Origin: an uncultured Candidatus Saccharibacteria bacterium
GTDB taxonomy: Bacteria; Patescibacteriota; Minisyncoccia; UBA6257
Length of the DNA stretch: 64,000 nt
Assembly: GCA_964479005.1 (NCBI GenBank)
Contig: CAYZJA010000001.1
Coordinates: 80,642 to 144,641 of the forward strand
Direction of reading: 5' to 3'
Shown here: piece by piece, positions 5,286 to 64,000 of the stretch
Layout of the letters: every line of letters begins with the position of its first letter
Numbering within the stretch: position 1 is the first letter of the stretch
Notes under the pieces: model-generated
The model's input: the letters and a program-made list of their open reading frames with translations, nothing else
Told to the model about the DNA's origin: nothing
The model's database searches: none
Program-made: the position numbers and the translations under genes

Positions 5286-5999
5286 ATGAAATTAGATAAA
5301 AAAGTAGCTTTAGTAACAGGCGGTTCAAATGGCATTGGAAAAGCTATTGCCCAGAGATTTTTAGATGAAGGAGCAAAGGTTATAATCTTTGATATTGTAA
5401 AACCAGATTATGATGTGAATTTTTATAAAGTTGATATAAGTAAAGAGGAACAAATCAGAAAAGCGTTTGAGAAAATTGAAGAATTAGATATTGTTGTTAA
5501 TAACGCTGGAATTTATTTTCAAGCATCTGTTGAAGAAACATCAGGCGAACAATTAGACAAAATGATGGATGTAAACTTTAAAGGAGCATATTTGATTTCT
5601 AAATACGCGCTTCCTTTGGTTAGAAAAAACAAAGGAAATATTATCAATATTTCTTCTGCCATTGGAATTGCACCTGAGCCAGGATCTCCAGCTTATTGTT
5701 CATCTAAAGCAGCGATAATAATGCTTACTAAATGTATGGCTCAGGAATATGCTGCAGAAGGAATAAGAGTAAATGTGATATTACCAGGACCTATAGATAC
5801 TCCATTATTGAGAAGAGTTCTTTCTTCTGATGAAGCGATTCATAAGTATGCTGAGTTAAATCCCATGAGAAGAATTGGAAAACCTCAAGATGTTGCAAAT
5901 GTGGCAGTCTTTTTGGCTTCAGATGAAGCAGGTTATGTAACTGGTGGAATATATTCAGTGGATGGCGGAGAATCCAGTTCTAGCCGATATTCAAAATAA
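5286..5999 (+). CDS. short-chain dehydrogenase/reductase (SDR)
   Basis: TGGSNGIGKAIA, NNAG, YCSSKAA catalytic motif. Confidence 0.9.
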   Translation: MKLDKKVALVTGGSNGIGKAIAQRFLDEGAKVIIFDIVKPDYDVNFYKVDISKEEQIRKAFEKIEELDIVVNNAGIYFQASVEETSGEQLDKMMDVNFKGAYLISKYALPLVRKNKGNIINISSAIGIAPEPGSPAYCSSKAAIIMLTKCMAQEYAAEGIRVNVILPGPIDTPLLRRVLSSDEAIHKYAELNPMRRIGKPQDVANVAVFLASDEAGYVTGGIYSVDGGESSSSRYSK

Positions 6000-6046
6000 G
6001 AACCTGCTTCGCAGAACCTTGTTTTTCATTTCATTCAAAATAACAA
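5996..6046 (+). repeat. dispersed copy of the AAGAACCTTG repeat family
   Basis: aataagaacctgcttcgcagaaccttgtttttcatttcattcaaaataa begins on the SDR stop codon. Related to copies at 23991, 27404-27527 (reverse orientation) and 30450. Confidence 0.6.
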
Positions 6047-12361: not shown

Positions 12362-12503
12362 AATGAAGATGAATGAAGATAAAATTGTCAACTTTTCAAT
12401 ATATAAAGAGGCGTTTGGTTTAGAACTGAACGTCTTTTTCATTAACAAGGACTAGCTTTACTAAATTTATGCCTTTGGCATTTGTCCTTATTTGGTGTGG
12501 GGG

Positions 12504-12531
12504 TTGACAAATTATTTTTCTTTGCTATACT
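12504..12531 (+). promoter_or_regulatory. promoter TTGACA-16-TGcTATACT (extended -10)
   Basis: ttgaca aattatttttctttgc tatact. Near-identical context to the 54247 promoter. Confidence 0.6.
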
Positions 12532-12535
12532 AAAG

Positions 12536-12595
12536 ATGCCGTTGTTTTGAGATATGTAGCTTGCTATATATCAATGGGCAGCGGCATTTTTTTTT
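12536..12595 (+). ncRNA. ~60-nt hairpin RNA, family member 1 (unknown function)
   Basis: Outer stem atgccgttg/cagcggcat, inner stem gatatgtag/ctatatatc with loop cttg, then a run of 9 T. Homologous to 54279-54342. Confidence 0.45.
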
Positions 12596-23965: not shown

Positions 23966-24424
23966 ATGGGTATTTTGAATATTTTTAAAAATAAGAACCT
24001 TTTTCGTTCTACTCAAAAGAACCTTGTTTCTCGTGATGCTCGAAATAAGAAAATCGAAGAAAAAAAGGTTGAGAAAGAGAAAACCAAAAAGCCAGTAGCA
24101 GAAGAAAAGAAAGTTGAAATAAAAGGGAAGATTGTTTTAGAAGGATCCTCTTCGGCATTGTTGATTAATCCTTATTTGAGCGAAAAGTCTACTAGTTTAA
24201 GAGAGCAAGAAAATAAATATATTTTTAAAGTTAGCCCTAGAGCGACAAAAAACGAAATAAAAAAACTTTTAGAAAATATTTACAATGTGGAGGTAACCAA
24301 GATTAATGTAATAAATACCCCTGCTAAGCCTAAAAGATGGAGACAGAAAAAAAGATATTTTAACAGGAGTAAAAAAATGATGGTTACCATAAAGAAAGGC
24401 CAAAAAATAGAATTAGGAATATGA
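23966..24424 (+). CDS. rplW: 50S ribosomal protein L23 with ~55-aa N-terminal Lys-rich extension (start uncertain)
   Basis: The L23 core starts near LLINPYLSEKSTSL...KYIFKV...NKIKKLLENIYNVEV. The upstream part of the ORF contains a repeat-family copy. Confidence 0.85.
   Translation: MGILNIFKNKNLFRSTQKNLVSRDARNKKIEEKKVEKEKTKKPVAEEKKVEIKGKIVLEGSSSALLINPYLSEKSTSLREQENKYIFKVSPRATKNEIKKLLENIYNVEVTKINVINTPAKPKRWRQKKRYFNRSKKMMVTIKKGQKIELGI
23991..24049 (+). repeat. AAGAACCTTG-family repeat copy inside the rplW 5' region
   Basis: ataagaacctttttcgttctactcaaaagaaccttgtttctcgtgatgctcgaaataag. The second half aligns to the unit ataagaaccttgttattcgcctttggctcataataag. Confidence 0.55.
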
Positions 24425-27203: not shown

Positions 27204-27404
27204 ATGGTAAAAGCAAAAGAATTACGATTAAAACCCGAAGAGGAATTAAATCAATTACTGTCTGAATCCCAAAAGAAATTACGGGAATTGAGGTTTAATT
27301 TGGCTAGCGGAAAAGTTAAAAACGTACGCACCATTCGTGTTTTGAAAAAGAACATTGCGAGAATTTTAACTATTTTAAATGAAGAAAATGAAAATCAACT
27401 CTAA
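27204..27404 (+). CDS. rpmC: 50S ribosomal protein L29
   Basis: KAKELRLKPEEELNQLL...LRELRFNLASGKVKN. Confidence 0.95.
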   Translation: MVKAKELRLKPEEELNQLLSESQKKLRELRFNLASGKVKNVRTIRVLKKNIARILTILNEENENQL

Positions 27405-27527
27405 TTATGAGCCAAAGGCGAATAACAAGGTTCTTATTATGAGCAAAGCAAATAACAAGGTTCTTATTATGAGCCAAAGGCGAATAACAAGGTTCTTATT
27501 ATGAGCAAAGCAAATAACAAGGTTCTT
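27404..27527 (+). repeat. tandem array A-B-A-B (32+30+32+30 nt) between rpmC and rpsQ
   Basis: A = attatgagccaaaggcgaataacaaggttctt (27404, 27466). B = attatgagcaaagcaaataacaaggttctt (27436, 27498). The two A copies are identical, as are the two B copies. Confidence 0.95.
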
Positions 27528-27529
27528 AT

Positions 27530-27838
27530 ATGGAAAAACAAATTAAAAAACAAAAAAGGATATTAAAAGGAGAAGTTATATCAGACAAGATGGATAAAAC
27601 TGTTGTAGTTAAGGTTTCCAGATTGAAAGTGCATCCGAAATATAAGAAGCGCTATAAAATTACCAAGCGTTTTAAAGCCCATGATGAGAAGAATGAGTGT
27701 CGTGTAGGCGATAAAGTAATGATTGAAGAAACAAGGCCTCTATCTAAAGGGAAAAGATGGAAAGTGAAACATAAAGAACAAATAACAAATAATAAGAAAG
27801 AAGATGATTCAACCGCAGACAATATTAAAAGTAATTGA
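27530..27838 (+). CDS. rpsQ: 30S ribosomal protein S17
   Basis: [19 protein letters not shown] ... [23 protein letters not shown]. The C-terminal tail overlaps rplN. Confidence 0.95.
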
Positions 27839-28172
27839 TAATAGTGGCGCGAAAGTAATCCGTTGTTTTCGAGTATTAGGCGGAACGAAAAGAAGATATG
27901 CTGAGATTGGCGATATTGTTGTTGCTTCTGTTCAAATAGCTGAGCCTCGTAGAGAAGTGAAGAAAAAAGCGGTAGTAAAAGCCATAATCGTGCGTCAGAA
28001 AAAGGCTTTTAGGAGAAAAGACGGAAGCTATATTCGTTTTAATGAAAACGCTGCGGTTCTTGTTAATGATAAAAAAGAACCTTTGGGTAATCGTATTTTT
28101 GGTCCTGTGCCGCGCGAAATAAAAGAAAGAGGGTATAGTAAAATAGCGGGTTTAGCCCCAGAATTAGTATAA
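27804..28172 (+). CDS. rplN: 50S ribosomal protein L14
   Basis: [17 protein letters not shown] ... [10 protein letters not shown]. Confidence 0.97.
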
Positions 28173-28181
28173 TTTATATTT

Positions 28182-28490
28182 ATGAATATTAAAAAAGGCG
28201 ATACAGTTTTAATGAAAAAAGGCAAAGATAAAGGAAAGACAGGTAAAGTGATAAAGGTTTTGCCAAAAGATGGCAAGGTGGTTGTTGAAGCTTTAAATTT
28301 AATAAAAAAGATTCAAAAAGCCAAAAAGGCAGGTGAAAAAGGGCAAATGATTTCAGTTCCGAGACCTGTTTATAGAGCTAATGTTATGCTAATTTGTCCT
28401 AATTGTAAGCGACCTACAAGAATTAGTTATACTAAAGATGATGGCGCTAAATACAGAGTTTGTAAAAAATGCGGTTCAAAGATTTCCTAA
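28182..28490 (+). CDS. rplX: 50S ribosomal protein L24 with C-terminal CxxC...CxxC
   Basis: IKKGDTVLMKKGKDKGKTGKV (KOW domain). C-terminus CPNCKRPTRISYTKDDGAKYRVCKKCG. Confidence 0.95.
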   Translation: MNIKKGDTVLMKKGKDKGKTGKVIKVLPKDGKVVVEALNLIKKIQKAKKAGEKGQMISVPRPVYRANVMLICPNCKRPTRISYTKDDGAKYRVCKKCGSKIS

Positions 28491-28496
28491 GTATTA

Positions 28497-29069
28497 ATGA
28501 CGTTTATGAAATTTTCTTACAAAGAACAATTTAAAAAAATAGTAATTCCAGAAATGAAAAAAGAATATCATATTGATAATGATTTGAGAGTACCAAGAAT
28601 TATAAAGGTGGTGGTTAATATAGGCATAGGTCGATTAACTACTGGTTCTAAGAATAACAAAGAATTAATTAAAAGGGTTTCAGATGCTTTGGCAATAATT
28701 ACCGGCCAAAAACCATCTGTAAGGGCGGCAAAAAAATCTATTGCAAGCTTTAAAACAAGAGAAGGAATGCCGATTGGTTTGAAAGTTACTTTAAGAGGCA
28801 AGAGGATGGAGGATTTTATTTATAAATTTGTTAGTTTGACCATTCCAAGGATTAGAGATTTTTGGGGAATCCCTTTAAAGAATATTGACGAGACTGGAAA
28901 TTTAAATTATGGTATTAAAGAATGTAATGTTTTTCCGGAGACAGAAAGCATACAAAATATTCCTTCATTTGGCTTGGAAATTACCTTTGTTACAAGCACA
29001 AAAAATAGAGAGCAGTCAATGAAATTATATAAACTATTAGGTTTTCCTTTATGGCAAAAAAATCAGTAA
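28497..29069 (+). CDS. rplE: 50S ribosomal protein L5
   Basis: [13 protein letters not shown] ... ITGQKP ... [22 protein letters not shown]. Confidence 0.97.
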
Positions 29070-29236
29070 TAGCAAGATCTAAAAAGAAACCCAAGTTCTC
29101 TTCACGAATAGTGCGGCGTTGTTGGCGTTGCGGAAGAAAAAAAGGCTATATTAGAGATTTTGGCCTTTGCCGTATATGTTTTAGGGAGTTAGCTTCAGAA
29201 GGAAAAATACCTGGAATAAAAAAAGCAAGCTGGTAA
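29051..29236 (+). CDS. rpsZ: 30S ribosomal protein S14, zinc-binding type Z
   Basis: 61 aa, [23 protein letters not shown]. Confidence 0.95.
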
Positions 29237-29290
29237 AAGGTAAATAACAAATAACAATAAACAATAGAACAATTTAGTAATTTATATCTT

Positions 29291-29683
29291 ATGACCGATC
29301 CTATAGCAGACATGTTAACAAGAATACGTAATGCTCAAGCAGTTAAAAAAGAAACCGTTGTTTTCCCTTATTCAAAAATAAAATGGGAGATTTTAAATGT
29401 TTTATCAAAAAGTGATTATATCAAGGGGTTAGATAAAACAAACAAAAAAAATAAAAAGTTTATTGAAATAATTCTAAAATATGATGAAGAGAAAACTCCA
29501 AAGATTTCTGAATTAAAGAGAGTTTCTAAGCCATCAAGACGCGTATATGTTCACGCAAAAGATATTTGGTTTTTTAAAAAAGGTTTAGGCATAAAAGTTT
29601 TGTCAACTCCAAAAGGAGTTCTTTCTGATAAAGAATCAAAGAAATTAAATGTCGGCGGGGAGATTTTATTAGAAATATGGTAA
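29291..29683 (+). CDS. rpsH: 30S ribosomal protein S8
   Basis: TDPIADMLTRIRNA ... VLSTPKGVLSDKE. Confidence 0.97.
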   Translation: MTDPIADMLTRIRNAQAVKKETVVFPYSKIKWEILNVLSKSDYIKGLDKTNKKNKKFIEIILKYDEEKTPKISELKRVSKPSRRVYVHAKDIWFFKKGLGIKVLSTPKGVLSDKESKKLNVGGEILLEIW

Positions 29684-29693
29684 TTTATATATT

Positions 29694-30236
29694 ATGTCTC
29701 GTATAGGTAAAAAAGAAATTAATATTCCAGATTCAGTTGAAGTAGTATTGGAAGAAAACAAATTAAAAGCCAAGGGTCCTAAGGGTGAGGATTTTTTAAT
29801 TATCAAAAATGGTTTTAAAATTAATATTAAAGATAATGCCTTATTAGTTATTCCTTTAGAGCAAAAAAAAGATACTTCTGCCCAATGGGGGACTTTAAGA
29901 GCATTAATTAATAATCTTATAATAGGGGTAGATAAAGGATTTGAAAAACAATTGGAGATTAATGGAGTAGGTTATCGCGCTGATATGGATGGAGCTAATT
30001 TGAATCTTAAATTAGGATATAGTCATCCAATTATACTTTCTGTTCCCGAAGGACTGGATGTAAAAGTGGAAAAAAATATAATCACTATTAATGGTATTTC
30101 AAAAGAAAAAGTTGGACAATTTGCCGCGCTAATAAAGTTTCAAAGGCCTGTGGAACCTTATAAAGGAAAAGGTGTTCGTTATGTTGGGGAAAAAGTTTTA
30201 CGAAAAGCGGGTAAGAAGGTGGTAACCACTGCTTAA
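29694..30236 (+). CDS. rplF: 50S ribosomal protein L6
   Basis: MSRIGKKEINIP ... GVGYRA ... LGYSHPI ... PYKGKGVRY. Confidence 0.97.
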   Translation: MSRIGKKEINIPDSVEVVLEENKLKAKGPKGEDFLIIKNGFKINIKDNALLVIPLEQKKDTSAQWGTLRALINNLIIGVDKGFEKQLEINGVGYRADMDGANLNLKLGYSHPIILSVPEGLDVKVEKNIITINGISKEKVGQFAALIKFQRPVEPYKGKGVRYVGEKVLRKAGKKVVTTA

Positions 30237-30253
30237 ATTAATTAAAAGAGTAA

Positions 30254-30658
30254 ATGAATAAAAATAGCAAAAGAGAGCAAAGAGAAAAAAGGCATAGAAG
30301 AGTAAGGGCAAAGATCCATGGAACAAAAGATAGGCCCCGTCTTTGTATTTTTAAATCCAATAAGCATATTTACGCTCAAATTATTAATGATGATAAGGGA
30401 TTTACACTCGTTTTTGCTTCAGATTTAGAAATCAAAGATTCAAAAAAAGATAAGAACCTTGCTTCGCAAGAACCTTGTTATTCGCCTTTGGCTCATAATA
30501 AAAAAATTAATTTAGCTCAAAAAGTTGGGGAATTAATAGCTAAGAGGGCAAAAGATAAAAAAATAACGAAAATTCTTTTTGACAGAGGTGGATTTAAATA
30601 TCACGGTCAAGTGAAAACTTTAGCTGATGAAGCCAGAAAACACGGATTACAGTTTTAA
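30254..30658 (+). CDS. rplR: 50S ribosomal protein L18 carrying an internal ~15-aa insertion
   Basis: [32 protein letters not shown] ... [26 protein letters not shown]. The insertion [15 protein letters not shown] is encoded by a repeat copy. Confidence 0.95.
30450..30499 (+). repeat. AAGAACCTTG-family repeat copy in frame inside rplR
   Basis: 30469-30499 aagaaccttgttattcgcctttggctcataa is the exact reverse complement of ttatgagccaaaggcgaataacaaggttctt in tandem unit A (27406-27436). It is preceded by a half-unit with hairpin cttgc-ttc-gcaag. Confidence 0.9.
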
Positions 30659-30671
30659 TTTTTAAACCATT

Positions 30672-31226
30672 ATGGCTTTTAATAGAAGATCGAAGGTAAA
30701 TAAAAGTGAATTTGAAGAGAGTCTTTTAGATATTGCGCGTGTAACTCGAGTAGTAGCAGGAGGAAAACGTTTAAGTTTTCGAGCTACGTTGGTAATTGGC
30801 AATAAATCCAAGCATCAAGTTGGTGTCGGGATAAGTAAAGGAAAAGATGTGGCTCAGGCGATTCAAAAAGCAAATAATAATGCAAAAAAGAATCTCATTA
30901 TTGTTCCAATTATTAATGAAACAATTCCACATGAAGTAAAAGCGAAATATAAAGCCTCAAGAGTAATCATAAAGCCAGCCAAAAAAGGAAGAGGAATAAG
31001 AGCTGGCGGAGCAGTGCGAACTGTATTAAAATTAGCTAATGTCCCAAATGCTAATGCTAAAATTTTAAGTTCCAGCACTAATGCTATTAATAATGCCAGA
31101 GTAACTATTCTTGCTCTTTCTAAATTAAAGAGTTTTGTCAGTAAAGAAAAATCTAATGAAGAAAAATCCATTGATAAAAAACAACAAACAAAGAATTATG
31201 CAAATTCATCAGATAAGATCAAATAA
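30672..31226 (+). CDS. rpsE: 30S ribosomal protein S5
   Basis: IARVTRVVAGGKRLSFRA.VVIGN ... GVGISKGKDV ... AGGAVR. C-terminal K/E/S-rich tail. Confidence 0.96.
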   Translation: MAFNRRSKVNKSEFEESLLDIARVTRVVAGGKRLSFRATLVIGNKSKHQVGVGISKGKDVAQAIQKANNNAKKNLIIVPIINETIPHEVKAKYKASRVIIKPAKKGRGIRAGGAVRTVLKLANVPNANAKILSSSTNAINNARVTILALSKLKSFVSKEKSNEEKSIDKKQQTKNYANSSDKIK

Positions 31227-31641
31227 TAAATCATCAAAAAAAAGGAAAGTCGGCAGAGGCGGTAAGAGAGGGACTTATTCTGGGCGAGGAATTAAAGGTC
31301 AGAAATCCCGGGCTGGATCAAAGATAAAACCTCAAATAAGAGAGATGATATTAAGGTTTCCTAAAAGACGCGGGGTGTCTTTTAATCCTTTAAAAAAGAA
31401 ATCTTTAGCCATAAAATTGAATGATATAGTAAAAGCTTTTCCTGAAGGTGGCGTTATTAACCTTAATAAATTAAAGAAAGCAGGCTTGATAAAAAAAATA
31501 AAAGGTGAAATTCGTCCAATTAAAATTTTAGGTGCAATACCTTTATCCAAAAAATATATTATTAAAAATTGTTTAGTTTCTGAAAAAGTAAAGGAGGTAA
31601 TTATAAAAGCCGGAGGAAAAATAGATTTTAAAATTAAATAA
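31198..31641 (+). CDS. rplO: 50S ribosomal protein L15
   Basis: KKRKVGRGGKRGTYSGRGIKGQKSRAG. ATG 31198 preferred; it overlaps the rpsE tail. No rpmD lies between rpsE and rplO. Confidence 0.93.
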   Translation: MQIHQIRSNNKSSKKRKVGRGGKRGTYSGRGIKGQKSRAGSKIKPQIREMILRFPKRRGVSFNPLKKKSLAIKLNDIVKAFPEGGVINLNKLKKAGLIKKIKGEIRPIKILGAIPLSKKYIIKNCLVSEKVKEVIIKAGGKIDFKIK

Positions 31642-40517: not shown

Positions 40518-40524
40518 ATCTATT

Positions 40525-40945
40525 GACGATTGAACCTATAAGCCGAATTCTGTATCCTGTTAAACAGGACGATAGTCATTTATCTAGCCCTGAAATTACT
40601 CTCAGGGTCAAGCGGCCACTTTCTGACAAATGTCAGAACACGAGCCTTGCACCCAGTAAGGATTTAGCCGTTTCATTCTTGAAATTGCTTTCAAGACTCA
40701 CCCTAATTAAAAAATAATTAGGGTGTTTTGAACTTTTCAGTTCAAAACGTCTCTGTTCGCACCTCTATTCCAGTTGTAAATCCGTCATTAGCGTTACCGC
40801 TAAGAGGCAAAAACTGGAGCGATAGCTGTTAGCTATTACCTTTTACCAACTTTGTTTTAGGCAAAATTGGTGGTGTTCGGACTTTCCTCCCCGCCTAAGT
40901 TTTGCGAACAAAATTTTGGCGGGGTAACTACCCAGTTCAATCGAG
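40525..40945 (-). ncRNA. rnpB: RNase P RNA, bacterial type A
   Basis: The minus strand reads ggcggggaggaaagtccgaacacc (P4 5' strand), ggtgcgaacagagacg, ggctaaatcc..gggtgcaaggc, and acagaattcggcttatagg (P4 3' strand). P1 is cgattgaac/gttcaatcg. Confidence 0.93.
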
Positions 40946-46848: not shown

Positions 46849-47136
46849 ATGGCTACAAAAAAATTTAGTCCAACAAGAACAATAACGCAAAAAAACCTCG
46901 AAAATGTACCTGGCGACAAGCCAGGTGTCTATCGCATCAAAAACGCGTCAAATGATATTCTTTACATAGGTAAAGCAAAAGGAGGTAGATTAGATGACAG
47001 AATCGCTGAACATAAAGGACAATTCCAAGGTGGAACGAAATTCCAGTATAGATTAACTCACAGCAAAGATGCCGCCGAGCGATTAGAGCGTAAAGAAATT
47101 CGTGAATGGAAACCGCCTAGAAATAAAGATAAATAA
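46849..47136 (+). CDS. stand-alone GIY-YIG nuclease-domain protein
   Basis: PGVYRIKN..NDILYIGKA ... RIAEH ... ERKEIREWKPPRN (GIY / YIG / R / E order). Confidence 0.6.
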   Translation: MATKKFSPTRTITQKNLENVPGDKPGVYRIKNASNDILYIGKAKGGRLDDRIAEHKGQFQGGTKFQYRLTHSKDAAERLERKEIREWKPPRNKDK

Positions 47137-47139
47137 TTT

Positions 47140-47625
47140 ATGCCCTCTTCGTTAAAAACATACGCGAGCATAGAAGACATCAATAGAATTTATATGAGGG
47201 CTAATGCGCATAGTCTTACCGAAAGAATTAATAAGGATAGTGGTCTTGAACAAGATGTTTTATACATAGAAGCCTTTTTATTGCAAGCAACGTTATTGGA
47301 AGGCGTTCTTGTTAATCTTGGTCTAAGATTATTAGAAAGCAAAAAAGAATTAACTGGGCTTAAAGGTAAAAGATACGTTAAATATGGTTATGATAATGCG
47401 ATCAATGATTTATATTTAATGAATGCGATAAAAACAAAAGAGTTTAATTTATTAGAGAAATATAAATCAAAAAGAAATAAGTATATTCATAATCTATTGT
47501 CAAAAAATACGGAGTGTATAGAAAATGAGGTTTTGGATATTCATAATCAGTATAAAGATTTTGTTTGGAAAATGATAAAAAAATTGGGGAGATTAGAGAA
47601 AAAAAGATTAAGTAAAAAAAAATAA
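47140..47625 (+). CDS. hypothetical protein with HEPN-like Rx4H motif
   Basis: Predicted all-helical. KSKRNKYIHNL (R-x4-H) in the C-terminal third. Confidence 0.4.
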   Translation: MPSSLKTYASIEDINRIYMRANAHSLTERINKDSGLEQDVLYIEAFLLQATLLEGVLVNLGLRLLESKKELTGLKGKRYVKYGYDNAINDLYLMNAIKTKEFNLLEKYKSKRNKYIHNLLSKNTECIENEVLDIHNQYKDFVWKMIKKLGRLEKKRLSKKK

Positions 47626-47629
47626 AACT

Positions 47630-48406
47630 GTGCTTACAAAATTTATTCAAAAATTGCGAAAAAAGAATAATATGACGCAGGAATTTTTGGCGTCCGAGTT
47701 GAATATCTCTCGTCCTACTTATGTTCAAATAGAACAAGGCGAACGGGATTTAACTATCACCGAAGCGGAAAAACTAGCTTCTATTTTTGGAATTTCTTTT
47801 GAAGATTTTAGACATGGAAAAGATTCTTCAATTACCGCAAAAATTGAAAAGAATAAAATCAAACCAAAAATAGGAAAACAAGAGATAAGAATTAACGTCC
47901 CGCAAAAAAATCTTAAAAAATTTAAGGAAGTTTTACTTTATGTTTTGTCAAAAGTCGGCGGTAAATCAAATGTCGGCGAAGCGGTATTATATAAACTGCT
48001 TTATTTTATTGATTTTGATTTTTACGAAAAATTTGAGGAACAATTGATTGGCGCGACATATATTAAAAATCATTATGGGCCAACTCCTGTTGAGTTTAAA
48101 GCTATTATTGGCAATATGATTCAAAACGATGAAGTCGTAAAAGTTGAGGGAAAATATTTTAATTATCCACAAAGAAAATATCTGCCAGTTAGACGGCCAG
48201 ATCTTAATGTTTTATCTGGACGAGAGATAGAACATATTGATGATGTTTTGGCGCGTCTTGCTGATAAAAATGCTAAAGAAATGGAAAATTACTCCCATGA
48301 AGATATTCCGTGGAAAACGGCGGAAAATGGCAAACCACTTTCCTACGAAAGTGTTTTTTATCGTGACGAACGTTATTCTGTAAGAAATTATGAAGACGAA
48401 CTTTAA
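47630..48406 (+). CDS. XRE-family HTH fused to Panacea (DUF4065, SocA-like) antitoxin domain
   Basis: LRKKNNMTQEFLASELNISRPTYVQIEQGERDLTITEAEKLASIFG (HTH_XRE). LLYVLSKVGG...VLYKLLYFIDFDFYEKFEEQLIGATYIKNHYGPTP (DUF4065). Confidence 0.75.
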   Translation: MLTKFIQKLRKKNNMTQEFLASELNISRPTYVQIEQGERDLTITEAEKLASIFGISFEDFRHGKDSSITAKIEKNKIKPKIGKQEIRINVPQKNLKKFKEVLLYVLSKVGGKSNVGEAVLYKLLYFIDFDFYEKFEEQLIGATYIKNHYGPTPVEFKAIIGNMIQNDEVVKVEGKYFNYPQRKYLPVRRPDLNVLSGREIEHIDDVLARLADKNAKEMENYSHEDIPWKTAENGKPLSYESVFYRDERYSVRNYEDEL

Positions 48407-54217: not shown

Positions 54218-54246
54218 TTTATACATAAAGTTATCCACAATGGGAC

Positions 54247-54274
54247 TTGACAAGATTTAAATGTTTGCTATACT
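54247..54274 (+). promoter_or_regulatory. promoter TTGACA-16-TGcTATACT
   Basis: gggacttgaca agatttaaatgtttgc tatact. Paralogous to the promoter at 12504. Confidence 0.6.
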
Positions 54275-54278
54275 ACGG

Positions 54279-54342
54279 ATGCTGTCGTTTGGAAGTATTT
54301 GTTAGCTTGCTAATGGATATGGAAGAGTGGCAGCATTTTTTT
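54279..54342 (+). ncRNA. ~60-nt hairpin RNA, family member 2
   Basis: Outer stem atgctgtc/ggcagcat, apical ttag-cttg-ctaa, then T7. Shares the gatgcYgt...tagcttgcta...ggcagcRgcattttttt framework with 12536-12595. Confidence 0.45.
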
Positions 54343-58094: not shown

Positions 58095-59357
58095 ATGAAA
58101 AAAATAATAACAATTTTAAGTACTTCCCTTTTGATGTTTGCTTTTGTAACTTCAGTTTCCGCAGCAGCTCCGAATTGGAATGTCAGTGGAACATGGATGG
58201 CAGAGCATGAGTTCGGGGGGAATACTTACTCTCATGTAAACAACATTGTTCAAGCACTAGACGGTTCCCTGACGGGGACCGGAGGATGGGATGGTACGCA
58301 AAACGGCATCCCCGTTGGTACTCCTAATACATGGGAGATAACCAACGGTTCGGTTTCTGGTAACAACATTCAATTTAACTACCAATACAATACCGTCGAG
58401 TTATGCGCCAAGGATGGAGGTATTGATGCAGTAATTAATGCTGACGGTTCTATGACTGGAACATGGCATGATGATTGTGGTACTGGACGAACTGGCGCAT
58501 GGACAGTCCCAGCAGGTTCCGCAGTCTATTTAAGAACTGCAGAAATTACTTCTCCAACATCAGGAGAAGAAGTTTCGGGAATGGTTTCATTTGATGCAAT
58601 ACTAACTGACAAAGATGGTGATGATAGTGTTCAATGGGCAGTTCGTCAGGGTACTTGCACTGCAGGAATAGGAACAGTGTTTGGTAATGTAGATGGTAAA
58701 TCAGATATCTACACTTGGGATCATGTCAATTTCCATGCATCAGCCGATACTTCTTCCTGGGCTCCTGGAAATTACTGTTTTGTCTTTAATCCCACAGAGA
58801 GTGCTGGAGATATAGCTATTAGAGAGACACGAGAGTTTATCCTAAAAGACACTGTAGCACCATTGGTAACGATAGAAAGTCCTAGTGAGGGTGATGTTGT
58901 TTCTGGTACAGTTGAAATTTATGGAACTGTTGTAGAATACTATATGCTAAGTCACTACAATATCTCGGTTTATCCAGGTGATGCCGACTTTAATGATTTC
59001 AGCAAAAGAATAGCTCAAGCAACTATTTATCGCACTACGGGTTTTAGTAATGAATTAATTTTCGCATGGGATTCAACTGGATTTGAAGATGGCGAGTATC
59101 TAATTAGATTAGCTGCTAGAGACGCTGCTGGTAATCGTAGTTATGATGGCGATGCATATCTAGGTGGTGATGATTCACAGCATGTGATTAGAGTAACTGT
59201 GAATAATATACCAGACCTAATTGGTCCACCGATTAATAAAGATCAATGTAAAAAAGATGGTTGGAAGATATTTGATAATCCAAGTTTTAAGAATCAGGGA
59301 GATTGTGTAAGTTATGTCCAGAGTAATGAAAATGCAAAAGGAAATAAAAATAAATAA
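58095..59357 (+). CDS. secreted protein with Ig-like repeats and C-terminal CK.DGW...FKNQGDCVSYV motif
   Basis: Signal peptide KKIITILSTSLLMFAFVTSVSAA. Repeated SGxVSGxV segments. C-terminal Cys motif. Confidence 0.7.
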   Translation: MKKIITILSTSLLMFAFVTSVSAAAPNWNVSGTWMAEHEFGGNTYSHVNNIVQALDGSLTGTGGWDGTQNGIPVGTPNTWEITNGSVSGNNIQFNYQYNTVELCAKDGGIDAVINADGSMTGTWHDDCGTGRTGAWTVPAGSAVYLRTAEITSPTSGEEVSGMVSFDAILTDKDGDDSVQWAVRQGTCTAGIGTVFGNVDGKSDIYTWDHVNFHASADTSSWAPGNYCFVFNPTESAGDIAIRETREFILKDTVAPLVTIESPSEGDVVSGTVEIYGTVVEYYMLSHYNISVYPGDADFNDFSKRIAQATIYRTTGFSNELIFAWDSTGFEDGEYLIRLAARDAAGNRSYDGDAYLGGDDSQHVIRVTVNNIPDLIGPPINKDQCKKDGWKIFDNPSFKNQGDCVSYVQSNENAKGNKNK

Positions 59358-59382
59358 AAAATAAATAAAAAAAATAAAAAAT

Positions 59383-61131
59383 ATGAATAAACAATTATTC
59401 TCTAAAACGATTTCACTTTTCTTAGTTTTTTCTTTGGTGTTCGTAGGTGTTTCAATATTTTCACCAAATAATATTGAAGCTAAAGGACAGAAACCAAATA
59501 ACAAAATATCAATTTGTCATAGAACTAGTTCTGCTACTAATCCTTGGAATGTAATTAATGTTAGTGTTAATGCTCAAGATGCTCACTTAGCTCATGGAGA
59601 TTTTCTTTATGAAGGTAGTTATCCAGTGAATTCTAAAGAAGCAGAGGAATGGTGTGGCATGACTAGATATACTTGTAATGAAAGTACTTGGCAATGTGTA
59701 ATTGATAACCAAGGTCAATATTCAAGTTATGATGATTGTTCAACTGTTTGTCAGGAACCAATGGCAACTGTAACAATTTGTAAATATGACGAAGAAAGGA
59801 ATCCTTTAAGTGGATGGAAAATGATTTTGAAAGGGGATTTGCAAGACCAAGTAACTGTTTTTCCTGATGGGTCAGCATATTTGTCAGGAGATTTACCATT
59901 AGAAGATTATTTATTAATGGCTTCTGGTCAATATGTTTATAGGCCTGGAACTTTAGGGGCTGAATATTCTGATGCTGGCTATACTAAGAGGAATTGTCCA
60001 GGAGATGCTACTTATTTATGTAGTGGTCCCTATACCCCATGGTTTAATGTTTTTGATATTATAGGTATTCATAAAGGATGGTTGGGGATTATGGTTAATG
60101 ACGCCGCAACTAATTGGGGTTCTTACTTTAACTCTGCTCATACTTATGCTCTGGGATATCCTAATTATAGTGGTTCATTATCTTTTACAATTAAAGATGA
60201 TGTGTATAGTGATAATTCAGGACAATTAAATGTTGATATTTATAAAGGATATACTGGGGAGACAGATGAAAATGGTTGTATAACCTTTAATGATGTTCCT
60301 TTGGAAACTTATTCTCTTGAGGAAATTCTTAAAGATGGATGGCAAAATGTTAGTGGTTTAGGACAGATTGTTATTGATGAATCTCAAGAAACTTTTGATG
60401 TGATTAATAGTGAAATTAAAAGCGAAAAAGAACTAGCATGCATAAATTCAGGTGGCACAGTTGGAACAGGTATATGCTGCAAAAGTGTAGAAGGTTTTCC
60501 AAATGATTGTGCTACAGGAGCCTGCGGTTGTTCTGCAGGAGATAGCCATGAAGTTCAGGTTTGTAATTGTCCAGCAGGCAAATGTTTTGATGGAAATTCC
60601 TGCGTAACAAAATGTGAAGAAGGAATTAATCTTCTTAAAAACGGTAGTTTCGAATATCCGGAAGTAACTAATACAAGCAAATGGCAGTTATTTCCATCAG
60701 GGACAGCTCTACTTGAATGGGTAGTTGGATGGGTTAGCGCTGCTCCATCAGACCCTCCAACAATTGAAATACAGAAAGGCGTAGTAGTTTCTCCTAGTAA
60801 TGGACTTCAAAGCATTGAATTAGATTCAGAAGCTCCAACCTATATTTCTCAAGCAGTTAATACAGAATCTGGCTATGGATATAAATTAAGCTTTGATTTT
60901 GCAGCCAGGCCTAATACTTCAGAAGAAGATAATAAATTAGAGGTTTGGGCTGATAGTATTCTTAAAGATAGTATTAGCAGCAATACATCTTGGCAAACAA
61001 AAACATATAATTTTAATGCTACTTCTAACCTTACGGAAATCAAATTCGTGGATATAGGAATTCCTAATACCGATTCAATGGGTACATTATTAGATAATGT
61101 TAAATTAGAATGTGTTCCGCCGGTTCTGTAA
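59383..61131 (+). CDS. secreted modular protein (ICHRT...HGD motif, prealbumin/Cna-B-like module, Cys-rich linker, DUF642-like lectin module)
   Basis: Signal peptide. KISICHRTSSATNPWNVINVSVNAQDAHLAHGD. VTICKYDEERNPLSGWKMILKG. NGSFEYPEV...SIELDS...YKLSFDF...LLDNVKLECV. Confidence 0.7.
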   Translation: MNKQLFSKTISLFLVFSLVFVGVSIFSPNNIEAKGQKPNNKISICHRTSSATNPWNVINVSVNAQDAHLAHGDFLYEGSYPVNSKEAEEWCGMTRYTCNESTWQCVIDNQGQYSSYDDCSTVCQEPMATVTICKYDEERNPLSGWKMILKGDLQDQVTVFPDGSAYLSGDLPLEDYLLMASGQYVYRPGTLGAEYSDAGYTKRNCPGDATYLCSGPYTPWFNVFDIIGIHKGWLGIMVNDAATNWGSYFNSAHTYALGYPNYSGSLSFTIKDDVYSDNSGQLNVDIYKGYTGETDENGCITFNDVPLETYSLEEILKDGWQNVSGLGQIVIDESQETFDVINSEIKSEKELACINSGGTVGTGICCKSVEGFPNDCATGACGCSAGDSHEVQVCNCPAGKCFDGNSCVTKCEEGINLLKNGSFEYPEVTNTSKWQLFPSGTALLEWVVGWVSAAPSDPPTIEIQKGVVVSPSNGLQSIELDSEAPTYISQAVNTESGYGYKLSFDFAARPNTSEEDNKLEVWADSILKDSISSNTSWQTKTYNFNATSNLTEIKFVDIGIPNTDSMGTLLDNVKLECVPPVL

Positions 61132-61237
61132 GTTATAAATAATATCCGGCAATTACAAAAGAAAAAGTTGATAGGATTTAATGGCGAATTAACCGTTCAT
61201 TTTAAATAAAAGATTAAAAAGTTAAATATATAAAAAA

Positions 61238-64000
61238 ATGAAAAAACAATTTTTCTCTAAAACATTTTCAATTTTCTTGGCACTTTCTTTTGTACTTTCT
61301 AATAGCGCAATGTTAGTGCCATTACAAGCTGAAGCTTGTGAGGAAGAAATATGCGAAGACGTTATTGTGGTAAGTAATATAGAAGATAAGGTTTTTGATA
61401 TTGCAGAAACTCTTCCCGGTGAAGCAGCTGTTCTTGCTTGGGATGATCATCCGGCATGGACAGCGTATATTGAAGGCGCAAATTGGATTTGGAAGACAGA
61501 ATATGTAGAAAATCCTGATCAAGACGAAACATATATATTTAAAAAAGATTTTGATATTGTTGGCATTCCAGATTCTGCAACATTAAAAGTTGCAACTGAT
61601 AATTCGTATAGTGTTTGGGTTAACAATGTTTTGATTGGAGAAGTTATAACTGAAGATAATCACAGTTCAACAACCCAAGATCAATATAATAATATCGTTG
61701 ACTTTCATACCGGTTCAAATGAAATTAAATTTGAAGTTAAAAACTGGGCAGGAAATGCGTCACCGAAATTAAATCCTGCAGGTCTTTTGTATAGACTTGA
61801 GATTGTAAGATCTTCTTGTGAACCTCAATGTATACCTCAATCTTCTATAGAAACAGACTGTACTAATGGTTTAGATGATGACTGCGATGGTTTTATTGAT
61901 AGTGAAGATTCTGATTGTCAGATGTTAATAATGGCTTCTAAAGTAATTTGTGATAATGAATCAGATTTACCTAATTGGGGGACAGGATCTGGAGTTGACT
62001 ATCCTTCATATAACATTGATCAAAACACAGCTTCGGATTATGTAGCTGAACATTCTGGTTGTTATTTAGCTTCTAATTGGTTTTTTCAATGGGGACAACA
62101 AGGTTCTGATGATTTTGGAAAAGACTTTTATGGAGAAGCTGGCAATGGCTACACTACTTTTGGGCCAACAAATGAAAATGGAGTAGCTAGTACAACAGTG
62201 GATTCTGTTACCGGTAGTTATTTGGAATTAAGGGAAGTTCTGCAGCAAGGTTATATTCCTTTTACGTATGACCAATCACATAAATCTAATGATAATAATA
62301 TTTCTGCAGAATTTTATTGCCACAATGATATTCTCAATTATGATAACTGGGATTATATAAAAAATCCTCAATTAGGAATTACTCATTATTGCGTTGGATT
62401 TAATGCATTAATCGAACAAGAAGAACCAGAACCTGTTTGTGGAAATGAAATTATAGAAACTGGTGAACAATGTGATCCACCTTCAACCACTGCTCCTAAT
62501 TCTACTGATGAATATTTCTGTGACCAAAATTGTAATTTAGTTCCTATCTATCATTCTCTGGATGGTTGTCCAAAAAATCAAATCCTAGAATTTATTCAGT
62601 CTTATCAAATTCATTCAACTAGTACGACAGAAGTTATTATTCCTGTGAGTGGTAGCGATACATATAAGTTTGAAGTTAAAGGAACTTTTTATCCTACTCA
62701 AAATGGAAAAAATGAGAATTTCCTATCAGATGCCGCCTATACGACTGAAGATGGCTGGGTTTCAACTTCTACAAAATACGGAATTAAAGGCATACCACCT
62801 GATTATGCTGCCCATGCTTTATTAGGTGATTTAGGATTAGGGGCTGGAGTAATTAATTGGGGAGATTATGATTCTTCTCATGAATATGATTTCTCTTACA
62901 CAATTCCTTCAGGCGCTACTTCTACTCAATTTGTGATAGGTGATAGATGGGATAATTGGTTTATACCAGATGATATTAGTTGGAATAATCAAGGCGGAAT
63001 GAAAGATAATCTTGGAAATTTGACTTTAGATGTTTATGAGTGTAAGCCAATCCAAGCTAGATGTGATCCTAAGTTAGAATTAGTTATGAATGGCGATTTT
63101 GAGAGTCCTGAAGTGACTGATCTAGTAAAAAAATGGGGTATTTTTCCATCAGGGACAACCGATTTAGAATGGTTAATTAATTGGAGAGAAATTTGGCCTT
63201 CAGCACCAAAAATAGCAAATCTTGAAATTCAGAAAAGTTATTATACTCCAGTAATAGCTCCTGTAGTTCCTGGAGATCCAGATCAATATGCTGAGTTAGA
63301 TACTGATTGGCATGGTCCAGGTGGACCTTCTGGTGAACCAGCCTCAGTAGCTATTTCTCAAGATATTCCAACAATTATAGGGGAAACTTATAGATTAAGT
63401 TTTGATTTTTCACCACGACCATATACTGATTTAGAACAGAATCATTTAAAGGGTTTTGTTGATAGCGCTGAATTATTTGATATTTCTGCTGATGGTTCTG
63501 GTTTAACAGATACTTTATGGAATCAATATTCTGATAATTTTGTTGCTACAAGTTCAATAACAAACATTAAATTTACTGATTATGGTACACCAGACTCTTT
63601 AGGCACTTTCTTAGATAATGTTAGCGTAAGATGTGTTCCTCAGGACGAACCTACTATGTATCATTGTAATGAGGAATGGCAATGTATAGCAGATCCTGAA
63701 GGTGAATATAATACTGATAATTGTGACAATCAATGTATTAAACCTGGAACATCCACAGTTACTATTTGTAAATATAATGAACAAGAAGAACCTTTAAGAG
63801 GTTGGAAGATGATACTTAAAGGTGATAGGTATGATACAGTGCCTGTTTTTCCAGATGGGCAAAATTATTCTTCAAATCCTTTGCTATTAGGTGATTACTT
63901 AATTCAGGCTTCTGGTCAATATTTATATAGACCAGGAACACCTGGCGCTGAGTATTCTGATGCTGGCTATACTAAGAGGAATTGTCCAGGAGATGCTGAT
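61238..64000 (+). CDS. large secreted modular protein, 3' end outside window (not in ORF track because no stop is reached)
   Basis: Hand translation from ATG 61238 stays open for 921 codons to the window edge. Signal peptide, CTNGLDDDCDGFIDSEDSDC motif, DUF642-like module (NGDFESPEV...AELDTDW...YRLSFDF...LDNVSVRCV), then the ICKYNEQEEPLRGWKMILKG module. Confidence 0.75.
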   Translation, partial: MKKQFFSKTFSIFLALSFVLSNSAMLVPLQAEACEEEICEDVIVVSNIEDKVFDIAETLPGEAAVLAWDDHPAWTAYIEGANWIWKTEYVENPDQDETYIFKKDFDIVGIPDSATLKVATDNSYSVWVNNVLIGEVITEDNHSSTTQDQYNNIVDFHTGSNEIKFEVKNWAGNASPKLNPAGLLYRLEIVRSSCEPQCIPQSSIETDCTNGLDDDCDGFIDSEDSDCQMLIMASKVICDNESDLPNWGTGSGVDYPSYNIDQNTASDYVAEHSGCYLASNWFFQWGQQGSDDFGKDFYGEAGNGYTTFGPTNENGVASTTVDSVTGSYLELREVLQQGYIPFTYDQSHKSNDNNISAEFYCHNDILNYDNWDYIKNPQLGITHYCVGFNALIEQEEPEPVCGNEIIETGEQCDPPSTTAPNSTDEYFCDQNCNLVPIYHSLDGCPKNQILEFIQSYQIHSTSTTEVIIPVSGSDTYKFEVKGTFYPTQNGKNENFLSDAAYTTEDGWVSTSTKYGIKGIPPDYAAHALLGDLGLGAGVINWGDYDSSHEYDFSYTIPSGATSTQFVIGDRWDNWFIPDDISWNNQGGMKDNLGNLTLDVYECKPIQARCDPKLELVMNGDFESPEVTDLVKKWGIFPSGTTDLEWLINWREIWPSAPKIANLEIQKSYYTPVIAPVVPGDPDQYAELDTDWHGPGGPSGEPASVAISQDIPTIIGETYRLSFDFSPRPYTDLEQNHLKGFVDSAELFDISADGSGLTDTLWNQYSDNFVATSSITNIKFTDYGTPDSLGTFLDNVSVRCVPQDEPTMYHCNEEWQCIADPEGEYNTDNCDNQCIKPGTSTVTICKYNEQEEPLRGWKMILKGDRYDTVPVFPDGQNYSSNPLLLGDYLIQASGQYLYRPGTPGAEYSDAGYTKRNCPGDAD

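Follow-up and report, generated by a model that had tools for sequence, protein, structure and literature searches.

The gene for ribosomal protein uL18 (rplR) of an uncultured Candidatus Saccharibacteria bacterium carries an in-frame insertion of 48 nt, and this insertion is one copy of a multi-copy repeat family. It lies in a stretch of 64,000 nt of contig CAYZJA010000001.1 (assembly GCA_964479005.1, positions 80,642 to 144,641 of the forward strand), which we refer to as the window and whose own positions are used throughout. We propose, with a probability of roughly 0.8, that the rplR segment is a copy of a non-coding, selfish and non-autonomous mobile repeat of a Pacebacteria-like clade of Patescibacteria, and that it is most likely translated as an additional loop that the protein tolerates.

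The insertion in rplR

The features on which the argument rests are the following.

30254-30658, plus strand: rplR (uL18), an intact open reading frame (ORF) of 134 residues that carries the insertion; PF00861; matches to uL18 chains in the PDB down to E 1e-34
30450-30497, plus strand: the 48-nt repeat element, in frame in rplR, with the half-unit of 18 nt at 30450-30467 and the full unit of 30 nt at 30468-30497

The host gene is identified by its PF00861 domain, by its place between rplF and rpsE in the spc operon and by its homology to solved uL18 chains. With a GC content of 32.3%, the window is AT-rich, and it holds an S10-spc ribosomal protein operon on the plus strand; within rplR, the GC content reaches 41.7% in the insert, compared with 30.5% in the rest of the gene. 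When the gene is aligned at the DNA level with the empty-site relatives L004, L005, L006 and L009, a single clean gap of exactly 48 nt opens, and on either side of it the sequences correspond at each base. The sequence in the window is AAAAAAAG[ATAAGAACCTTGCTTCGCAAGAACCTTGTTATTCGCCTTTGGCTCATA]ATAAAAAAATT, with the insert in brackets, while the four relatives read AAAAAAAG/ATAAAAAGATT, the slash marking the empty site. Because ATAA stands on both sides of the insert, its boundaries can slide by up to 4 nt.

The protein sequences tell the same story. About 100 of the 120 best L18 homologues, all of the closest ones included, are 118 residues long, and among these 120 the extra segment occurs only in the query's own entry; outside the insert, the L18 protein of the closest relative is 97% identical. 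The first-pass annotation of this DNA had proposed that an element of a repeat family entered the L18 gene in frame, at the position of a short variable loop. It had suggested an alignment to confirm that the insertion is lineage- or strain-specific, and had named a segment shared across the clade, with no DNA-level similarity to the intergenic repeat, as the observation that would speak against it. The alignment with related L18 proteins showed no such sharing, and the proposal stands. Its estimate of about 15 extra residues requires a small change: the insertion is exactly 48 nt, so that the in-frame segment comprises 16 residues (67-82). The filled allele is found in identical form on five contigs, including the 551,616-bp source contig (JGI 3300028837) and a contig of 1.2 kb (3300005782); contig L003, which shows the identical allele, was assembled separately. 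Since contigs from two JGI samples agree, the insertion is not an assembly artefact.

The insert has a relative in an intergenic tandem array between rpmC and rpsQ. The 31-mer TTATGAGCCAAAGGCGAATAACAAGGTTCTT occurs there at 27405-27435 and 27467-27497 on the plus strand, and its reverse complement occurs at 30468-30498 inside rplR; dinucleotide-preserving shuffles give a chance expectation of 0.00 for such matches. When extended, the match covers 32 nt at 100% identity (27404-27435 and 30468-30499) and 37 nt at 97%. The exact inverted match to unit A of the array had already been recognized in the first-pass annotation, correctly except for positions that were one base too high. That a half-unit with the hairpin CTTGC-TTC-GCAAG precedes the 31-mer had likewise been noted, and we locate this half-unit at 30450-30467. 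In the history that we propose, one repeat unit would have entered rplR in this genome's lineage, beside the ATAA that lies in codons 66-67.

In an AlphaFold model of L18 (mean pLDDT 82), only residues 63-75 fall below 50, whereas the remaining fold is predicted with confidence; the insert is situated in this low-confidence loop, between the strand at 50-56 and the helix at 78-101. Most likely it is translated as a hydrophilic extension of 16 residues of the variable loop that leads from strand 3 to the long helix, and is tolerated by the ribosome. The unit is 16 codons long and free of stop codons in four of its six frames, so that the rplR frame stays open, and the frame use seen across the family (open frames with a hydropathy suited to the host protein) fits translation. 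Additions at this place are found elsewhere, too. More distant Patescibacteria have 10-40 extra residues, unrelated in sequence, in the same alignment columns of L18, and two close relatives, L011 (6178-6221) and L013 (1171-1252), carry different in-frame rplR inserts of 39 and 78 nt, respectively, in the same L18 loop, at GTTAA about 20 nt upstream. These two inserts are strongly palindromic and G+C-rich (fold z -6.9 and -8.6), and they are independent insertions by other element families; no further copies of them were found among the fetched loci. Having been struck at least three times, the L18 loop is evidently permissive for insertions.

The repeat family and its other copies

The canonical unit of the family has the 48-nt consensus AAGAACCTTG-yTTCrC-AAGAACCTTGTTATTCGCCTTyGGCTCATAAT. 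In the window and the fetched contigs (about 25 metagenome or genome contigs, related Patescibacteria), this two-part unit, an 18-nt half-unit and a 30-nt unit, is present in 29 copies with 21 distinct sequences, and L020, L030 and L040 contain copies that agree with the one in rplR at 47 of 48 positions. The loci come from a pattern scan of public metagenome contigs, which returned 48 of them; about 38 contain clear family members, and the rest resemble chance matches without flanking features. Close relatives of the L18 and L23 proteins are named 'Candidatus Pacebacteria' by the sources.

Family units are found in both orientations and in both intergenic and genic positions. Among the intergenic copies, one lies between lepB and an LCP-family gene in a GTDB representative genome (L001), and another lies 18 nt upstream of rplE (L019/L035). 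Intergenic copies in reverse orientation often abut start codons, so that …CAAGGTTCTTAT is followed directly by ATG, at rpsQ (the window, L011 and L021), lepB (L001/L032 and L062) and pgk (L051). Head-to-tail arrays with an exact period of 48 nt are present in L016, L024, L036, L049 and L057. In three of these, the arrays occupy one orthologous site, with 3, 7 and 2 full-length copies (L016:4401-4547, L036:3576-3882 and L049:2602-2699, respectively), between genes that look DksA-like and ComM-like when judged by eye from the ORF sequences. All ORFs beside these three arrays, viewed in this way and without Pfam, look like ordinary ClpP-, DksA- and ComM-like genes. An open frame of 103 residues spans the L036 array, and gene callers could take longer arrays for spurious ORFs.

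The array in the window occupies the spacer between two ribosomal protein genes.

27204-27404, plus strand: rpmC (L29), the gene upstream of the array
27400-27529, minus strand (that of the family consensus): four full units in tandem, filling the spacer between rpmC and rpsQ in the order A (32 nt), B (30 nt), A, B; detected with TRF and nhmmer
27530-27838, plus strand: rpsQ (S17), its ATG directly after the last repeat unit (…CAAGGTTCTTAT, then ATG)

TRF describes this array as 2.1 copies of a period of 62 with 98% matches, and its last unit abuts the rpsQ start codon. The rpmC-rpsQ junction is filled in the window, in L011 and in L021, where it holds a single 48-nt unit, and it is empty in L004 and L005. 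This distribution does not follow the phylogeny: rpsQ of L004, the closest relative at the locus, is 95.4% identical to that of the window in DNA, compared with 84.6% for L021. Such patchy occupancy needs either recurrent insertion at a preferred site or precise loss, and either of the two points to mobility. Conservation is stronger in the repeat than in its host genes: the window and L021 have the same 30-nt unit without any difference, in spite of the 84.6% identity of rpsQ. Only 1-2 nt lie between rpmC and rpsQ in relatives, where the two genes look translationally coupled; hence, the array divides such a junction. Each array unit (window 27404-27530) can also be read as AAGG, 8 nt and ATG, so that the units form a chain of mini-ORFs that ends at the rpsQ start.

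Besides rplR, copies occur in frame in a range of other genes. An amidohydrolase (L028) contains a copy that gives a peptide of 16 residues and uses the same frame as in L18, GrpE has two tandem copies at its N-terminus, and SmpB carries one copy. The reverse frame is used in HolA and in a metallo-beta-lactamase (MBL)-fold hydrolase, and when the MBL-fold protein is aligned with the solved structure PDB 1vjn, a gap of 16 residues marks the copy. Further in-frame copies are found in an HrcA-like protein (identified by eye), in a protein of 664 residues and in a membrane protein of 704 residues, the last in the hydrophobic forward frame. Pfam confirmed four of the hosts of genic copies. Stop codons are confined to two of the six frames of the unit, and four are open; the soluble hosts show only two hydrophilic frames, and the hydrophobic frame was seen in the membrane protein only. 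The repeat would survive in genes because its length is a multiple of three and it is free of stops, and it would persist there as a translated, disordered loop extension.

Two of the copies in other genes lie within the window.

23966-24424, plus strand: rplW (uL23), 152 residues, in which the Pfam L23 domain starts only at residue 66
23989-24042, plus strand: 54-nt insertion of a related sub-family unit (…AAGAACCTTGTTTCTCGTGATGCTCGAAAT), in frame in the N-terminal extension of rplW, encoding about NKNLFRSTQKNLVSRDAR; boundaries blurred by an A-run
5993-6045, plus strand: decayed element copy (ATAAGAACCTGCTTCGCAGAACCTTGTTTTTCATTTCATTCAAAATAA) at the 3' end of a short-chain dehydrogenase gene (SDR Pfam match); nhmmer E 1.4e-5

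The rplW copy matches the family profile in nhmmer with E 7e-4 (about 23991-24048) and appears as a clean 54-nt gap in the DNA alignment with the relatives L063 and L064, next to which a protein alignment was also made. The S10-spc operon holds two in-frame genic insertions (rplW and rplR) together with one intergenic array. At the third site, the TAA stop codon of the short-chain dehydrogenase gene (5997-5999) lies in the ATAA of the decayed element, whose insertion may have reshaped the C-terminus of the enzyme.

Origin and mode of spread

It would be tempting to explain the rplR insert by a local templated event, in which template switching or gene conversion copied part of the inverted array at 27400-27529 into rplR via ATAA microhomology. 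There is a case for this: the rplR copy and array unit A are identical over 31-32 nt, inverted and only 3 kb apart, ATAA stands on both sides of the insert, and both copies in the window, that in rplR and that in the array, share the T variant of the GCCTTTGGC loop, where many other genomes have C. However, the 18-nt half-unit ATAAGAACCTTGCTTCGC is missing from the local array, and the complete 18+30 unit recurs in many contigs, at unrelated sites and in arrays with a period of 48 nt. The source of the rplR copy was therefore a 48-nt master copy and not the A/B array, and the insert is a canonical unit of the family rather than a by-product of its neighbour. The kinship with the nearby array that the first-pass annotation had pointed out holds for the 31-mer, but the insert is more than a mere piece of that array, and we consider a local event unlikely.

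A different possibility is that the unit is a functional signal selected by the host, for example a translation-initiation or regulatory cassette, of which the genic copies are by-products. The reverse units directly before the ATG of rpsQ (in three genomes), lepB and pgk are suggestive, as they place an AAGG seven nt upstream of the start, in the manner of a Shine-Dalgarno sequence, and the unit is very strongly conserved between genomes. Yet a signal of this kind accounts poorly for the use of both orientations, for copies in coding regions and for long head-to-tail arrays whose copy number varies (L016, L036 and L049). Furthermore, orthologous sites are empty in close relatives, and promoter and terminator scans did not rise above chance; one terminator-like match on the antisense strand of the half-unit is within expectation (2 found, 1.8 expected), and a terminator or promoter role was discarded. 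As an account of the family, the idea seems quite improbable to us. A regulatory or Shine-Dalgarno-providing role could apply to the reverse intergenic copies only, and it leaves the genic copies and the arrays unexplained.

The first-pass annotation had offered two fates for the insert, tolerance by the ribosome or removal at the RNA or protein level, and our results favour a segment that is tolerated and translated. Removal before the protein is made or mature might take the form of an RNA intervening sequence, of translational bypass as in T4 gene 60 or the mitochondrial byp elements, or of protein excision. The direct ATAA repeats that border the insert, the hairpin at its 5' end and a peptide that happens to end in His-Asn speak for such a process. 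On the other side, Rfam was searched over the whole window at the gathering threshold and over 27300-30700 at E<=1, and neither search matched the element. The insert has a length divisible by 3, its reading frame is open, and a take-off codon is not followed by a stop. A length of 16 residues is too short for an intein fold, and the residue that follows the insert is Lys, not the Cys, Ser or Thr of an intein. These properties set the insert apart from inteins, self-splicing introns and bypass elements alike. Moreover, each genic copy was found in an open frame with a hydropathy suited to its host, as selection on a translated peptide would give. We therefore hold removal to be very improbable. 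That the loop is ancestral and was lost by the relatives, or that it is an assembly or chimera artefact, is hardly credible: the loop length of L18 does vary across Patescibacteria and repeats can mislead assemblers, but the segment is DNA-identical to an intergenic repeat, the closest homologues all lack it, the longer loops of distant ones are unrelated to it in sequence, and the same allele recurs on contigs from different samples.

We infer that the family is mobile, as opposed to being spread by some other copying process, and its anatomy suggests how copies might arise. The unit has two small subterminal hairpins on one strand, with stems of 3-5 bp. Hairpin 1 pairs in 94.7% of cells, with compensatory changes from G-C to A-U three times and from C-G to U-A three times in addition to G-U intermediates, and its covariation score was reached by 0 of 500 shuffles; pairing that includes G-U pairs is kept on one strand only. 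Hairpin 2 showed no covariation. The motif conserved in the left flank is only AT, and clean filled/empty pairs for the canonical 48-nt unit number two. Copying would go via a single-strand mechanism (HUH/IS200-IS605-type or REP-like, where REP denotes repetitive extragenic palindromic sequences) or via a mechanism guided by microhomology. The one-strand hairpins, the lack of terminal inverted repeats, the variable junctions and the 48-nt arrays would fit such copying better than they fit a cut-and-paste MITE (miniature inverted-repeat transposable element).

Several observations weigh against a mobile and translated repeat. When the 5' end of the unit, ATAAGAACC, is set against its 3' end in reverse complement, TTATGAGCC, about 6 of the 9 positions agree, which does not amount to terminal inverted repeats. 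The redundancy at the junctions varies (AT, ATA, ATAA, AATAAG), with 4 nt (ATAA) at rplR, 2 nt (AT) at rpmC-rpsQ and 2-6 nt elsewhere, so that transposition is not proven by a target duplication of constant length. As DNA, the 48-nt unit folds at -5.2 kcal/mol (z -0.9), a value that 35 of 200 shuffled sequences reach or surpass. The covariation of hairpin 1 rests on two base pairs in 19 related sequences. Among the approximately 48 non-ribosomal ORFs of the window, which amounts to about 12% of the 551-kb contig, Pfam revealed no transposase, recombinase or HUH enzyme, including those of the PF01797 type. In addition, genic copies were recognized through an ORF that spans them, a procedure by which gene-breaking copies would be missed, and translation of the insert is deduced from its open frame and from frame use.

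A number of more specific ideas were tried and discarded. Target duplication of TA, as in the IS630/mariner type, would yield the empty rplR site seen in the relatives only with the assumption of one additional codon, and insertion 3' of ATAA as a general model fits rplR but not the rpmC-rpsQ site. A strong palindrome does not describe the 48-nt element (z -0.9 and -0.7) and holds only for the unrelated inserts of L011 and L013. A scan of viral contigs, with a phage vector in mind, gave one match (L065), in which both the half-unit and the flanking features are missing; it is due to chance and provides no evidence for a phage vector. When a 30-residue L18 segment was searched with HMMER against a library of 1.84 billion representatives, the sole match was P0205, a repeat protein of 4930 residues with eleven NQEPCYDPLAWNS motifs, and we take this to be chance similarity inflated by the 11 repeats. 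The four open-frame peptides, concatenated and searched against an index of 5.8 billion proteins, yielded no candidates, a word index being apparently unsuited to such a chimeric query.

Relation to known repeats and other features of the window

The closest analogue of the family is provided by the Rickettsia palindromic elements (RPEs), which were reportedly described by Ogata et al. in 2000. In the review PMC10969869, RPEs appear as short non-autonomous repeats that are found both between genes and in frame in housekeeping genes. The family described here resembles them in being short, non-autonomous and multi-copy in a reduced genome, in occurring both in intergenic regions and in frame in unrelated housekeeping genes, and in adding a peptide at sites that the fold tolerates. 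It differs from them, in a comparison made by description, in that RPEs are palindromic units of about 100-150 bp with a long hairpin from one alphaproteobacterial genus, whereas our unit has 48 nt and does not fold significantly on itself (z -0.9). The head-to-tail arrays with an exact 48-nt period, the patescibacterial host and the presence in two ribosomal protein genes are further differences. As the host genes are Patescibacteria-like, common descent with the RPE families is unlikely.

Bacterial MITEs in genes, such as ERIC, BOX, Correia, QMITE1 and the Anabaena MITEs, are likewise small and dispersed, and some are fused in frame (PMC10969869). They share with our repeat the small size, the absence of a coding capacity of their own, the dispersal and the occasional in-frame fusion with host ORFs. 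Unlike our repeat, whose ends match at only about 6 of 9 positions and whose junctions vary between 2 and 6 nt, MITEs have terminal inverted repeats and a fixed target duplication inherited from a parent insertion sequence, and no parent for the 48-nt unit is present among the roughly 48 ORFs examined in the window. Elements of the REP/REPIN type with RAYT, and other elements derived from IS200/IS605, are very short, have small hairpins on one strand, lack terminal inverted repeats and target duplications, and insert next to short motifs. The 48-nt unit is like them in its very short length, in its missing terminal inverted repeats and in its insertion beside a short motif, and its small hairpins, of which hairpin 1 keeps its pairing on one strand, may be a further likeness. 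REPs, however, are extragenic and typically form inverted pairs, and here we find genic copies and head-to-tail arrays; nor does the window contain a Y1/HUH gene, and the flanking motif is only AT and the stems only 3-5 bp.

In organelles, the GC clusters of yeast mitochondria have inserted into a gene, var1. Coding palindromes in the genes of nematomorph mitochondria are another case (PMC6649704). In these systems, as in the window, short elements that are richer in G+C invade AT-rich, gene-dense genomes and are translated along with the host frame, some of them within a gene for a ribosomal protein. They differ in being organellar and strongly palindromic, which would fit the 39-nt and 78-nt inserts of L011 and L013 and not the 48-nt element of the window.

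In-frame selfish repeats are thus already known, and what we report is a much shorter, non-palindromic variant in a different phylum that reaches ribosomal proteins. At 48 nt, the unit is about one third the size of an RPE and, as a mobile repeat, would to our knowledge be shorter than any other in bacteria. The literature that we searched, including the MITE review PMC10969869 and a paper on ribosomes of the candidate phyla radiation (CPR), contains no description of such repeats in CPR bacteria. We speculate, tentatively and with more doubt than confidence, that the unit represents an undescribed class of ultra-short mobile DNA specific to Patescibacteria, which is copied via a single-strand hairpin intermediate by an enzyme not yet linked to it, is adapted to life in gene-dense, reduced genomes by its length of 16 codons and its four stop-free frames, and acts as a recurrent source of loops in essential proteins that include uL18, uL23, SmpB and GrpE. 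If the copying mechanism were new, the unit would be among the shortest mobile elements known.

The in-frame colonization of housekeeping genes has been seen mainly as a peculiarity of Rickettsia, and an independent, much shorter family in the CPR, which enters even ribosomal proteins of universal conservation, would show it to be a general outcome in small, AT-rich and gene-dense genomes. Some of the extensions by which the ribosomal proteins of particular CPR lineages reportedly differ would also gain a concrete source in the family, and its insertions mark naturally permissive sites in uL18 and uL23. For annotators and for phylogenomic studies based on ribosomal proteins there is a warning as well, since inserted segments form non-homologous alignment columns.

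A further related element (…AACAACGTTCTTGAGCGATAGCGAAAGGTTGTTAT…) was noticed in relatives. The L004 copy (2195-2250) is located within rpmC, at its 3' end, and is flanked by a duplication of about 13 nt (TTTTAAAYGAAAAA); in L005 (1941-2062), copies in tandem stand between rplP and rpmC. The k-mers of this element recur in at least 10 other fetched loci. Downstream of rplR (window 30672-31641), rplO follows directly after rpsE, the listed ORFs overlapping, without rpmD (L30) between them. This absence agrees with the loss of uL30 that is often reported for CPR bacteria (PMC9297842).

Elsewhere in the window, two 58-nt stretches that are 72% identical (12498-12555 and 54241-54298) contain TTGACA, 17 nt and TATACT, followed by a conserved segment (…GATGCyGTyGTTT…TAGCTTGCTA); this motif, which resembles a promoter plus leader, lies upstream of an HD-domain gene and of an ORF without a Pfam match. 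A bacterial class A RNase P RNA on the minus strand (40523-40943) just exceeds the Rfam gathering threshold (110.1 vs 100 bits). Downstream of tRNA-Gly, the region 46849-48403 contains a GIY-YIG nuclease-like ORF (46849-47133) and a gene with a helix-turn-helix and similarity to SocA/Panacea antitoxins (47630-48403); it may be a small mobile or defence islet, and no link to the repeat was seen there. Finally, 58095-64000 encodes paralogous secreted or surface proteins with Big_7, SpaA and DUF642 domains. Their 5' leader and signal regions are near-identical (59377-59438 vs 61232-61293, 82%), and further blocks are repeated between 59767-60009 and 63755-63997.

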